In this document: positions 12,555 to 24,500 of the stretch, piece after piece | Position numbering within the stretch: the first letter of the stretch is position 1 | How the letters are laid out: the number at the start of each line of letters is the position of its first letter | From: Girardia tigrina | Lineage: Eukaryota | Length of the DNA stretch: 57,828 nt | Reading direction: 5' to 3' | Assembly (NCBI GenBank): GCA_001938485.1 | Contig: MQRK01226513.1 | Span: 1 to 57,828, forward strand | Position numbers: made by a program

Positions 12555-15500
12555 NNNNNNNNNNNNNNNNNNNNNNNNNNNNNNNNNNNNNNNNNNNNNN
12601 NNNNNNNNNNNNNNNNNNNNNNNNNNNNNNNNNNNNAAATATTTTTACACGATATACTGTCCATTATTTTCAATCACTTTCTTCCACCTTTCCGGTAGCT
12701 TCATTATTCCTGATTCATAAAAACATTAGCCTTTGTCAGCAAAAAAGCCGTCTAGGAACGATTTGATGTCATCATCACTGGCGAATGTTTTTCTGTTTAA
12801 GGAATTCTGCAGGGATCTAAATAAGTGAAAATCCGATGATGCCAAGTCTGGAGAATACGGTGGGTGCGGCAAAACGTCCCAACCCAGTGATAACAGTTTC
12901 TGGCGAGTGGTCAAACTTGTATGCGGTCTTGCGTTATCATGCTGAATTACAACACATTTTCGATTTGCCAATTCAGGACGTTCCTGTTGAATTGAATGAG
13001 CCAATTTCTCCAGTTGACCACAAGATCTGTCTGAATTGATGGTTTCATTCCTCCGAAGGAGTTCAAAAAACACAATTCCTTTAAAATCCCACCAGACGGA
13101 AAGCATACCTTCTTTTGGTGAATTTCTGCTTTTGGGATCCTTTTGGCAGACTCACAACGTTTTGTCCATGATCGTCAGCGTTCCACATTGTTGTATTCAA
13201 TCCATTGTTCGTCGTAATCAAGCGCTTCAAAAATGGATCACTTTGTTCTCGCTTCAAAAGGGAACTGCAAATGTCTATACGTTTGACCAAATGAATTTCT
13301 TTCAGTTCATGTGATAACCACATATCGAGTTTACTGTCGAATCCAAGTTTCTTTAAATTACTTCCAACAATTGATTTTGATATTTCTAGAGTCTCTGCAA
13401 CTTCTCTTGTTGTAATATGTGGATTAGATTTGATCAATGCTGTTATTTTGTCACCATCAACTTCAACTGGTCGACCGGAGCGTGGTGCATTTTTCAGATG
13501 AAATTTTTCAGAACGAAATTTAGAAAACCAGTATTGACACTGTCGAAGTTTTAAGGAGTCACTACCATATACNNNNNNNNNNNNNNNNNNNNNNNNNNNN
13601 NNNNNNNNNNNNNNNNNNNNNNNNNNNNNNNNNNNNNNNNNNNNNNNNNNNNNNNNNNNNNNNNNNNNNNNNNNNNNNNNNNNNNNNNNNNNNNNNNNNN
13701 NNNNNNNNNNNNNNTAAACATAGTCTGAAAATTAAGGTTTCAGAATATATAATTGAATTTAAATTTTATCACATCGTTTTATATTTTCAAGCTTTTTATT
13801 AGGACGTACTCAAAAACGCAATGACTTTTTGACAAACCCAATATATAGGCTTTAATCTAGTACCAAAAGTAACTTTTTTTAATTAAACCTGAAATTTAAT
13901 ACCAAAACATACCATTGAGTTGTCCAACTGAAATTGTTTTTGATCGTAAAACAAGATTTGATTTTGATCTTCAGTAATATCCATTAAATATTTTAATTTA
14001 TTTTGTCGTCGGATTCTATAAATTTCCCAGTTTCGATAAGATTCTTTACAATTAATAGATGAATTGATGAAATGTTCATTGTAAACCAATTGATTCTTTT
14101 TATCCGTCATTTGATCAACCTCGATGCCGTCTTTGAAGTTGCCTCTTTCAAATTCAAAAGTTTGCATTTTTTTGAATGATTGATAGTTACACATTTGTAA
14201 AAGATCATATGGACTTTCAAAACTTGTAAAAAGATCAATAATTAATTCAGCGGGTACTTTTCTTAAATTGCTTTTCTTTTGTAAAGACGTTTGAAAATCA
14301 TCAATACAAAATCCTGAAATGACTTTTTCTTTCAAAGGAGAAAGTAATTTATCAACAAAATATTTTAAAATCGATTGTTGACAAACTACGGCAGATGTGG
14401 TTAAAATTAAATCATTTGAATCCGAATATGTGTTTTCGTAAAGAAAAGAAAGATCATTTGTTAAGAAATATTGTTCAAGAGTTTCGAAGGTGCAAAGTTT
14501 ATAAATAGAAGAGATACCATTTTTCTGAGATAATATGCAATTCATTCCCCATCGATTGATCCTAAATGTAATTTATTAGAAATCGAGAAAATAAATACAT
14601 AATACAATTTAAGAATTATCTGATCGGAGTCTGTTTGCCAATGTGAATCGACTATGATTACGGAACAGGATTCTGCATTAATATGATTGAGAATTTGTTC
14701 ATTAGTTCTTGAATGCAGTAAAAGAATAGTTTTCTTATTTCGACTTTGGAATTTGTTGAACTTATCAATCAGATTCAACAGATACTCCTCATCTTCTCCG
14801 GTACATGAATTTAAACGAATCTTCAAAAATATCCCGTAATTGTTATTGATGAAAATTAACGTCTCAATCATATCTAAAAGTTCCAAACTGTGAGAAATGA
14901 TGATGCATGACTTTACTAATGAATCATTTGCAAGACTTTTCAACATTGAATTGAGAGTTTTTAACTTTCCTAATGGATTTAAATAATTTAGGAAAATTAG
15001 ATAAATTTATAATACCCGATAACTTTATGTCTTTCATAGAAGTTGTAGAAAGTTTCGCATTAATCCTGGGTAGTTGAGCGAAATAAGTCTTAAAAAAATC
15101 ACTTATTGATTTAATTAGATAATTTTCATTGGTTTTTATTAAATTTTTGGGTTTCGAAGTCGTTACTAATTTAGGTGACCGGGCCATCACTTTGTTTTCT
15201 ATGATTTTATATCTGTTAAAAATATTTATTACATCGCATATATTTATATATATATATATGAAAAAATACCTTAAACAATTCGAATCAATAAAATTTTTGG
15301 AAATCAAACATAGTTTTGTTAAACAGTCTGATTTATTTGGACACAAATTCAGATCCATCAAAAGAATATTACTAGGAGTAAAATAATAACAATCACTACT
15401 GTCCAAGAAAATCATATATTTTTCATTCTCTTTGGAGATATTAGTTAAACGAGTCTATAATTGGTTAATAATAAACAACAATAGCAAATAATTATAACTT

Positions 15501-21500: not shown

Positions 21501-24500
21501 TATGTAATTTTAAAATTCACGAACTCGGAAATTTTTTAAAAAAAATTTTTAAATTCAATTATGAAATTGATATTAGTATTTAACATGAAAAATTATGTAT
21601 TTAATACGAAAAAATATCAATTTAATATGAAAAATACCAATTTAATATGAAAAAATGCTTTAAAAATACAAAAGTTTGCAATTCAGCTTGCCACTAAGAA
21701 AAAAGTTTAAATAACTATGAATAAAAAATTTACATTTGGAAAATATTTTGCATAATAAATTAAGATTTTTTCATATTTAATTTATTTTTTCATATTAAAT
21801 TGATAATTTTTAATGACAAATTGATATTTTTGTCATATTAAATTGATATTTTCTCATATTAAATTGATAAGTTTTAATATTAAATAAATAATTTTTCATA
21901 TTAAATTAAGAATTTTAGGTTAATTTGATTTTTTTCACATTAAATTGATTTTTTTAAATTAAATTGATATTTTTCATATTAAAAACATTTTTTTTCATTT
22001 TAAGTTGAGAAATTTTCATTTTAAAATAAAATTTTTCTTATAGTTAGGTGAATTTGGCAAAAAAATTTCAATTCGACAATTACACTATTTCATCAAACTG
22101 TTGTCAATTTCAAGAATTCGGCAATTACACAAATTCGACATAACATATATATAGGGAAGTAAACATTTTTAATAATACAACAAAAATTTAGGAAACCAAA
22201 TAAATTAAAATTACCGAATTCAATAAATCAGATTTTTTAGAGATTCGTTTGGAAGCATGACACTGGATCTCGTTTAATAACTCATCGACTTCAAAATTAG
22301 AATAAAAAAGAAGAAAAACCGATTGGGCAAAATGACTATCGATTAAAGTGTTGCTGTCGTTTGAAATAAGACCGATTCGAATTCCAAGCAAATCGACATC
22401 TGAAAAAATGATGTGATCTGGAATGCCCGACAAACTTTCAGAAAATTTTTCAATCTGTTTTTGTTTAAACTCAGAAATTAATGGTTTAATTTTCAAAAAT
22501 TACTTGATCATAGATAATATTGTTCCATTTAACGGATGTCAAACAAAACTGATAGAAAATTGCTGAATAACTGATTATACAAATTGTCATAAAGGAACTT
22601 TCAATTTGCTCTAATATCTCATGAGCACTTTTGTAAGACAAATACAAATCCAGCACAACTATTTTACAGTTTGGACATATTGCTTTCAAAAACGTATACC
22701 ATTCACTTATTTGTGAACTAGATGTGATAATCAATTCTGGAGTATGTGAATTAAACTTATTTGACAAATATCCCAAGAGAACTAAAAACAATCTTTTTAA
22801 ATAATCAATATTTACAGTTATATTAAACCTGAGATCATTAATCGATCATCTCCACATTGCAATGAACTGACAATTGCGAAAGACAACTTTTGTCTAACTA
22901 ATTCAAATAAACAATGTATATTTCGATTTATACATTCATTCTTTAATAATGCGTCTAATATTTCATTATTCGAAATGGAAAGTGGTTCTGAAAATGAGGT
23001 CGCTAGAATGGATTGTATTTTTTCACTTTGTGTTACAATGAAACTAGTTTTAGATGTTGTTTTCAAATACAAATCATTATTATCTTGTGACAAAGCTTCT
23101 GATACTAAAGAGTCACTATCGACGACATCAGAACTATTACCGGACCTCAAATCTATATTATCGCTGTTTAAAAAATAATTTTCATCAATTATCTTTTCCA
23201 ATGGCATTTGAGAAAGGATTTTCAATTCTGTAATTTCGTTTTCAAATGAATAGTTCCCCTACGAAATTCAATAAAATTTTCAATAATTAAAATAGAAATT
23301 CATTTACAATGACGTACTTCGATTTCATTAAATTCTATATTGTTTTCCAGCCAACTTAATTCCCCTATCAGATTTTCCGACGAAGAACAAGAATCACTGA
23401 GATCATATGAAATCTCATTAATGACCAAATTGTCCTCGTCTGTCAGCATAATAGAGCAATAACTGTGTGATGAATCAAAGGAACACACACTATCACTATC
23501 AGATCTATCAAACAGCGGATCGGAATTCTCATTATCGATTTCAGCATTGATAAGACTTTTGGTAAGCCACAGCTGTGACAAATCCATTGTCGAATTACTA
23601 AAATTCGATCTTTGTTTGGAAATTTCCGATTTAATTGTATTACAATCTGTCTTTAAACAATCATCAATGATATTTAAATTATCGATTAAAACCTTTTTTC
23701 GCCACCATTCTTTAACCATATTGGCAATTCGTGAACAAACCAATCTCGCTTCTTCTTGCACTTGAATATATTCCAACATTTTTATTTCGTCTTTAATAAA
23801 AACATAAGATTTAGCACTTTCAGCTATCTATAAATCTTTAAATTAAGAAAAAACAACGACACGTAAAAAATTATTACTATTTTTGCAGCTAAAATCTTCC
23901 AAGAAAATCGATTTTTCATATCTGTCGATAACCATTCGGCCTCTTCGATTAAATAATCCCAATGGACTTTAGTTCTAGCAGGTTCCATGACTTTCGGCAA
24001 GGCTTCCCGAGACCATATGCCTTTCTTCTTTAATAAACCGATTTTTTCCAATACTGTCGCTTCTTGCAACGCATCGTTCACGTTCTGTTCATCTTGAATT
24101 TTTTTCACGTTTTTCAAATCACAATCTGTGGGTTTCGAATTATTCCTATTTTTCATGATTTTATTACTCTTTAATTTCACGATTTTCTTGAAATGTTTGC
24201 AACTTTTCGGCGAAAACGAATGTAATTTGTCTTTTGATACTAACAAATCGTTCAACATTTCCGGACCGAATTTATATTTATACTCATTTTGAGTGTAAAA
24301 TAAATTTAATAATTCAATTGATTTCGATTTTAAACGCTGATATTTGGAATCATCCATAAAAATTATTGAAATTTAAAATTCTATCAAAATTTGCATTTAT
24401 TAAAACAAAAGAGTAAATAACAAATTCGTAATTTATTACCTATCAAAAATAATCAAATTTCTGATAAACACTAAGTACAAATTTACATAATTAGATACAT

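Follow-up and report, generated by a model that had tools for sequence, protein, structure and literature searches.

We analyzed a 57,828-nucleotide (nt) stretch of Girardia tigrina contig MQRK01226513.1 (the window; all coordinates are window positions) and describe on its minus strand a spliced gene that belongs to the SWR1/SRCAP/p400/Domino group and in which the Snf2 ATPase appears to have turned into a pseudo-enzyme. The gene is known here from genomic sequence alone, and we hold this reading with moderate confidence. Homology to the group is supported by an HSA domain, a split Snf2 ATPase and a W-x-P-P motif, found in order, which leave the p400 and Domino/SRCAP types undivided. Among the features of the group, the gene has the HSA domain, homology to lobe 1 and to lobe 2 and a long inter-lobe insertion; intact motifs I, II, III, V and VI are missing. 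An earlier sequence-only reading had proposed a p400/Domino homologue with a dead ATPase, and both the family membership and the pseudo-ATPase are supported by D-Q at motif II, HSRTNE at motif V, the HSA domain and the lobe alignments.

ATPase lobes and catalytic motifs

The gene has at least 14 exons separated by GT-AG introns and runs from 24357 down to ~10540. It was searched exon by exon. As comparators we used 16 long proteins of the Domino type obtained via the HSA exon, E1, among them P0026 ('domino helicase isoform X7 [Xylocopa sonorina]'); one further protein, P0118, was left out of the set. Their alignment was split into blocks, each represented by a hidden Markov model (HMM), and exon scores were controlled with 200 shuffles. 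The comparators carry LADEMGLGKT in 16/16 cases, DEAQ in 15/16 (the remaining row is gapped after D-E) and DRCHRIGQ in 13/16. All three tested with Pfam matched SNF2-rel_dom at 293-296 bits and Helicase_C at 91-96 bits. A whole-length family HMM gave near-zero scores on the gene outside HSA, with weak matches almost collinear in order.

Two exons aligned significantly to the ATPase lobes. Exon E4 (22504..22781), which holds the core of lobe 1 (motif Ia region) and the place of motif II at its end, matched family block B, ending in motif II, with 22.6 bits (0/200 shuffles as good) and an hhalign E value of 5.7e-4. Human EP400 was its best solved chain (E=0.0045; 20.7 bits vs 12.3 for SRCAP), and phmmer matched it with 9/16 comparators. 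Against Pfam SNF2-rel_dom, E4 scored 16 bits, under the gathering cut-off of 24.9. Exon E9 (14606..14969), which covers motif IV, the place of motif V and DSHW in lobe 2, matched family block F with 20.5 bits (0/200 shuffles as good; hhalign E=1.6e-3), and 26 of the 30 matches in an Atlas feature search were Helicase_C clusters (score 0.92). With Pfam, E9 did not match Helicase_C at E<=1. Each of the two exons matched the family block expected for it and none of the others.

We also ran the ATPase block HMMs against all 2433 open reading frames (ORFs) of at least 15 amino acids (aa) in the six frames of the window. Only E4 (E=1.7e-5) and E9 (E=4.9e-5) gave strong matches. Ten more had domain E values of 0.037-0.99, the best being 13 residues in another frame of E2, and the scan revealed no second SWR1-type gene within the window. 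This is in line with a dead ATPase without an intact paralogue, in which the gene would be the sole SWR1-family member of its lineage and H2A.Z exchange would be lost or taken over, for example by INO80; the closest database relatives, P0001, P0002 and P0151, are likewise all fragments of the same divergent type. We regard this sole-copy explanation as unlikely: a single 58-kb window is uninformative on the rest of the genome, and motif I is intact in 16/16 comparators.

Within the alignments, the catalytic positions are altered, and 16/57 invariant family columns are kept in E4 and 24/66 in E9. At the motif II place, D-Q stands opposite the family D-E, so that the motif II Asp is kept. At the motif V place, HSRTNE stands opposite STRSGG, with the glycines lost; downstream, DSHW faces the family DSDW and keeps D-S-x-W. 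The motif I place was located by position at the end of exon E3 (22829..23258, linker followed by the Walker A place), because the 47-nt E3/E4 intron (22828-22782) runs the end of E3 straight into the aligned start of E4. It reads FAIVSSLQCGDDR (22880-22842), in which QCGDDR puts an Asp on the Walker A Lys counting from either side. Motif III, placed by position in exon E5 (22215..22454), and motif VI, placed by position at the start of exon E10 (13913..14561; post-ATPase region thereafter), gave no significant alignment to the family blocks or by hhalign. When the start of E10 was counted on from the E9 alignment by eye, across the 44-nt phase 2 intron at 14605-14562, an Arg and a Gly fell opposite the R and G of H-R-I-G-Q, without statistical support.

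The strings on which the sequence-only reading was built are all present on the minus strand: the motif I string at the coordinates above, IIYDQ at 22518-22504 and HSRTNE at 14715-14698. It had extended the second to IIYDQV, whose final V is the first intron codon (GT donor at 22503). The places it had aligned to motifs II and V beat their controls (0/200 shuffles each); its motif I place did not (71/200). Its statement that no motif VI is recognizable is statistically right, E10 giving no significant match.

Other searches with the individual exons returned little. Against the 16-protein alignment, hhalign gave probabilities of 0.1-2% for E3 plus P0151, E5, E10, E11 and E13; no Snf2 or SANT chain was found among solved structures at E<=10 with E3, E9, E10, E11 or E13; NCBIfam held nothing relevant for the gene, and an Atlas search with E10 gave no usable match. 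Exon E6 (16253..16380), at the end of lobe 1, scored 5.4 bits against family block D, equalled by 1/200 shuffles. Between the lobe 1 and lobe 2 matches lies an insertion of ~367 codons (~550 in comparator P0026), formed by exons E7 (16201-15641), E7b (15598-15499) and E8 (15454-15016), which are connected by introns of 42 and 44 nt; it showed no sequence similarity to the family insertion. An in-frame 57-nt GT...AG stretch with a (TA)n core in E8 (~15198-15254, minus strand) may be an extra, read-through intron.

HSA domain and relatives of the N-terminal exons

The HSA domain named in the sequence-only reading was readily recovered. Exon E1 (23878..24357) contains the start codon, the N-terminal region and the first half of the domain, and matched Pfam HSA with E=1.3e-7 (32.2 bits, cut-off 23) over 38 profile positions of that half. 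Its best match among solved structures was human EP400 (2.5e-14), followed by SRCAP (7.2e-13) and yeast Eaf1 (1e-3); in bits, EP400 scored 55-57 and SRCAP 52. A search of representative proteins with this exon returned 622 matches at E<=1e-3, of which the nearest named full-length one was bee Domino, whose 47% identity is limited to HSA. Exon E2 (23318..23827) continues with the second half of the HSA helix and then an acidic and Ser-rich linker.

Three database fragments are closer relatives. P0001 is 63% identical and shares the start methionine of E1. P0002 is 56% identical and spans the E1/E2 junction unbroken, as predicted, which supports the 50-nt intron at 23877-23828; residues 1-45 of E2 match its residues 130-174 with 64% identity (E=5e-18). 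P0151 is 60% identical to E3 (E=3.3e-39), has 13 residues identical to FAIVSSLQCGDDR and diverges just past the proposed donor. Divergence of both P0001 and P0151 from the window begins at, or one residue beyond, the predicted donors. The 13-residue pseudo-motif I is the longest run that E3 shares identically with P0151, and the last 20 columns of their alignment are 17/20 identical, vs 68/123 elsewhere.

A Q-rich ORF at 25557-24928 was tried as the N-terminus of the gene and rejected: it follows the TAZ2 exon of a neighboring CBP/p300-type gene, and P0001 begins at Met 24357.

Post-ATPase region and SANT

Exon E11 (11162..11561) opens with I-W-M-P-P, and no other W-x-P-P occurs among the 77,296 residues of the six-frame translation. 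Its family counterpart, W-[A/C]-P-P-T-P-P, occurs in 8/16 comparators, 240-580 residues past motif VI. The IWMPP of the sequence-only reading is borne out by this uniqueness and this counterpart.

The SANT region it had also reported fared less well. Exon E13 (10657 to ~10540) was the best of the 2433 ORFs against the family tail HMM and aligned at the start of SANT; the match, with E=0.28, covers a possible first helix of a SANT/Myb-like domain and nothing beyond. Neither Pfam nor solved structures nor hhalign gave anything usable for SANT, and no further part of the domain turned up in the window. The helix is thus weakly seen and the domain lacks statistical confirmation. Among three comparators tested, Pfam Myb_DNA-bind_6 was seen in one.

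Far downstream on the minus strand lie N/Q/S-rich open stretches (1574-2272 and 7294-7497), one of which weakly matches the family tail HMM collinearly (E=3.5). They may code for a low-complexity tail at the C-terminus of the p400-like protein.

Gene model and the case for a pseudogene

Stop-to-stop translation of the minus strand showed a run of open stretches from 24372 down to ~10460. A frame-keeping GT-AG intron can be placed at all 13 junctions: 11 are short (42-59 nt, that between E4 and E5 possibly 34 nt) and two are long. The E5 acceptor can be set at 22454 or 22469, both in frame, giving an E4/E5 intron of 49 or 34 nt. The long E5/E6 intron (16381..22214, 5834 nt) has its GT donor at 22214 and its AG acceptor at 16381, and the long E10/E11 intron (11562..13912, 2351 nt) has a GTATGT donor after 13913 and an AG acceptor at 11562; both sites of each are in phase 0. 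Downstream of E11, the linker exon E12 (11115-10706) and E13 are preceded by introns of 46 and 48 nt. E1-E12 total 4989 nt, or 1663 codons. The bounds of the gene in the sequence-only reading correspond to exon or ORF ends, 13913 being the last base of E10 and 23225 the position at which the listed E3 ORF starts.

Could the locus be a decaying or unexpressed copy of a Domino-type gene, its motif losses being neutral decay? The extreme divergence of the ATPase would fit, as would three transposon or retroelement insertions in the locus and the lack of any relative of the C-lobe exon (0/53 candidates). The coding potential speaks otherwise. The local composition gives a stop probability of 0.086 per codon and a mean open run of 11.6 codons, and 10 of the 14 open stretches are longer than 100 codons (103-229), each with P between 9e-5 and 1e-9, so the claim of long open exons holds. 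None of the 14 exons contains an in-frame stop, and we saw no frameshifts, lost introns or lost splice signals. The introns all keep the frame, and the insertions sit in introns. The relatives P0001, P0002 and P0151 (56-63% identical), similar fragments of the same divergent type, keep these exons open and diverge at the predicted splice sites. We therefore consider a pseudogene very improbable: degenerate motifs in an open, spliceable gene conserved in relatives are better described by a pseudo-ATPase.

Hidden motifs and specificity of the decay

We also weighed whether the ATPase might still be active, either because alternative exons or an isoform supply intact motifs or because a highly divergent pocket binds ATP. 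The motif I place lacks a significant alignment, the motif II Asp and the D-S-x-W after motif V are kept, and the locus holds two N runs (13573-13714 and 12555-12636, left unfilled). Nevertheless, we give an active enzyme very little credence, for several reasons. The introns bordering the motif I, II, V and VI places measure 34-49 nt and leave no room for extra exons beside them. No other ORF of the window matched the motif I, III or VI blocks at domain E<0.03. The fragment P0151 shares the same non-Walker sequence. The N runs were rejected as hiding places for Walker motifs because both lie downstream, 3' of the ATPase, in the E10/E11 intron. The sequence-only reading had itself allowed that missing exons might restore the Walker motifs; no open stretch in the window carries intact ones.

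Other genes of the window do not share the degeneracy. The HAT domain of the CBP/p300-type gene scored 212 bits with Pfam, and a tubulin gene scored 147 and 117 bits. Judged by these controls, the loss is confined to the ATPase and is not a genome-wide effect. The base composition is AT-rich (20-40% GC in the window, ~27% over the locus). AT-biased drift was rejected as an explanation of all the changes because Asp codons (GAT) replace Lys, a substitution that runs against it.

A proposed scaffold role

If the pocket is dead, the protein would neither bind nor hydrolyse ATP and would not itself exchange H2A.Z, a task that the sequence-only reading had supposed to be delegated to a paralogue. 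In our proposal it would serve a NuA4/TIP60-type acetyltransferase complex as its platform: the actin/Arp module would be held by HSA, and the lobes, though degenerate, would persist with their insertion as a structural core. Such an Eaf1-like role is suggested by the architecture together with the published dispensability of the fly DOM-A ATPase for H4K12 acetylation: in the sections of PMC7239659 that treat it, DOM-A resembles Eaf1 with an inserted ATPase, and its Walker A mutant K945G still supports this mark. On this comparison, scaffolding a histone acetyltransferase complex is probably the only function of the gene. More tentatively, a metazoan lineage may have made a p400/DOM-A-type remodeller into an obligate ATP-independent platform, and selection may maintain the dead pocket FAIVSSLQCGDDR because it has gained a new role in structure or binding; we see this as a possibility worth stating, although the odds are somewhat against it.

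A number of points weigh against a pseudo-ATPase that acts as a scaffold. Every statement made here about a whole domain builds on per-exon evidence. E3 scored -3.4 bits against family block A, a value equalled by 71/200 shuffles, and the motif I place is positional only. The single-sequence AlphaFold model of E9 had a predicted local distance difference test score (pLDDT) of 50.8 and 0 Foldseek matches against the PDB at E<=0.001, and was left unused. No relative was found of E9 (0/53 candidates of near length) or of E4 (0/277 candidates, proteins of 210-2000 aa), so constraint on the lobes themselves is not established. A run of 13 identical residues arose in 689/20,000 shuffles (3.4%) of the E3/P0151 comparison, which makes the conservation of pseudo-motif I only suggestive, and P0151 may be paralogous instead of orthologous. 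The Eaf1/DOM-A platform is defined in part by SANT, which is only weakly seen here. A second set of transposase-like ORFs (~9186-10259, minus strand) lies just 3' of the possible SANT first helix; these ORFs resemble a mariner/Tc1-type N-terminal region and may sit in an intron or break the SANT-coding part, and two of them gave no significant Pfam match. Finally, ATP-dependent H2A.Z exchange by human TIP60 is reported in PMC11995519 and bioRxiv 10.1101/2025.09.22.677705, as far as the consulted parts of these sources go, and with other groups reporting exchange the dispensability of the ATPase in the family is not settled.

Neighboring genes and mobile elements

Directly upstream, head to tail with the p400-like gene, lies a CBP/p300-type acetyltransferase gene (24928-31060, minus strand) that ends ~570 nt before the p400-like start codon. 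It encodes TAZ1 (1.9e-15), KIX, a bromodomain, a p300-type PHD, HAT_KAT11 (1.4e-62), ZZ, TAZ2 and a Q/N-rich tail. The tubulin gene that served as a non-degenerate control lies at 43029-44230 on the minus strand; it spans two exons or more and matches Tubulin with E=1.9e-33 and Tubulin_C with E=4.5e-43.

The long E5/E6 intron contains a virus-like stretch on the plus strand (18913..20785) that we read as a decayed, reverse-transcriptase-like retroelement fragment. Its inverted arms (18913-19208 and 20416-20785) are 89-97% complementary and enclose ~1.2 kb with at least seven short ORFs of 30-120 aa in three frames of the plus strand. The best Pfam match of these pieces was RVT_1 with E=0.11 in one; the other seven of the eight tested matched no reverse transcriptase family, and solved structures gave nothing. 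The fragment may be Penelope-like. At the 5' end of the same intron, an AT-rich repeat patch (21577-22036) shows direct and inverted repeats with spacings of ~21 and 41-43 nt.

A mariner-like transposase remnant (12729-13731, minus strand) lies in the E10/E11 intron. At 13572-12729 Pfam matched HTH_48 (E=3.8e-6) and Transposase_1 (E=2.4e-17), with the HTH and DDE parts in different frames; one N run interrupts the remnant and the other adjoins it, beside a (TA)n tract. Elsewhere in the window we found a DDE_3 (Tc1/mariner-type) transposase fragment (34099-34422, minus strand, E=7.9e-7) and, at 51176-54010, a 209-aa ORF that weakly matches the hAT dimerisation region (E=0.0012, below cut-off) and is enclosed by inverted arms, 124-232 nt long and 90-98% complementary. 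The latter looks like a hAT-type DNA transposon. A Rfam scan of the whole window gave 0 matches at the gathering score.

Comparison with known systems

Whether the ATPase of TIP60, p400 or DOM-A does anything is disputed in the literature. In human TIP60, the EP400 ATPase is described as open, twisted and tethered to RUVBL1/2, with a latch helix that blocks DNA, and the authors conclude, in the portion of the preprint consulted, that histone exchange finds no support in their data (bioRxiv 10.1101/2024.07.30.605802). A gene whose catalytic residues are erased and which keeps HSA and the outline of the lobes would support the scaffold view and show which lobe parts architecture by itself requires. 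If true, it would be a natural separation-of-function allele in which the acetyltransferase platform of TIP60 depends on how the Snf2 lobes are shaped and can do without their chemistry, and it would bear on whether EP400-type ATPases exchange H2A.Z at all. In the literature covered, with subscription journals and supplementary files outside its scope, we came upon no account of natural degeneration in a SWR1/p400-family ATPase.

SRCAP, Swr1, DOM-B and bee Domino (P0026) belong to the same family, and E4 and E9 align to their lobes. They differ in that their motifs I, II, V and VI are intact, the Pfam scores of 293-296 and 91-96 bits seen in comparators contrasting with 16 bits and no match here.

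Hda2 and Hda3 of the yeast class II histone deacetylase complex offer a precedent in the excerpted account of PMC7793584: a Snf2-derived RecA-like domain without an ATP-binding motif that is a scaffold or DNA-binding part of a histone-modifying complex. They are an unrelated lineage and retain the second lobe only. Their Pfam family, PF11496, had no match among the exons of the gene; it also matches the C-lobe of comparator P0131.

With DOM-A and EP400, the gene shares the order of HSA, an Snf2 ATPase split by a long insertion, a motif after the ATPase and, possibly, SANT; EP400 is the best solved match for both the HSA and the N-lobe exons. The catalytic motifs of DOM-A, EP400 and the Domino-type comparators are intact, whereas those of this gene are degenerate, and the region before HSA is ~100 residues long here vs ~130-610 in comparators.

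Yeast and plant Eaf1 share with the gene the proposed role of an ATP-independent platform built on HSA, and the HSA exon matches yeast Eaf1 as given above. Binding of Tra1/TRRAP, Epl1/EPC, the Esa1/Tip60 module and actin-Arp4 is a further mark of an Eaf1-type NuA4 platform. In the passages of PMC7239659 that concern it, the HSA and SANT of Eaf1 are not separated by ATPase lobes, whereas two degenerate lobes and an insertion stand between HSA and the possible SANT here. Since these lobes remain, the gene is not an Eaf1 orthologue in architecture; it would have reached the same end from the fused state.

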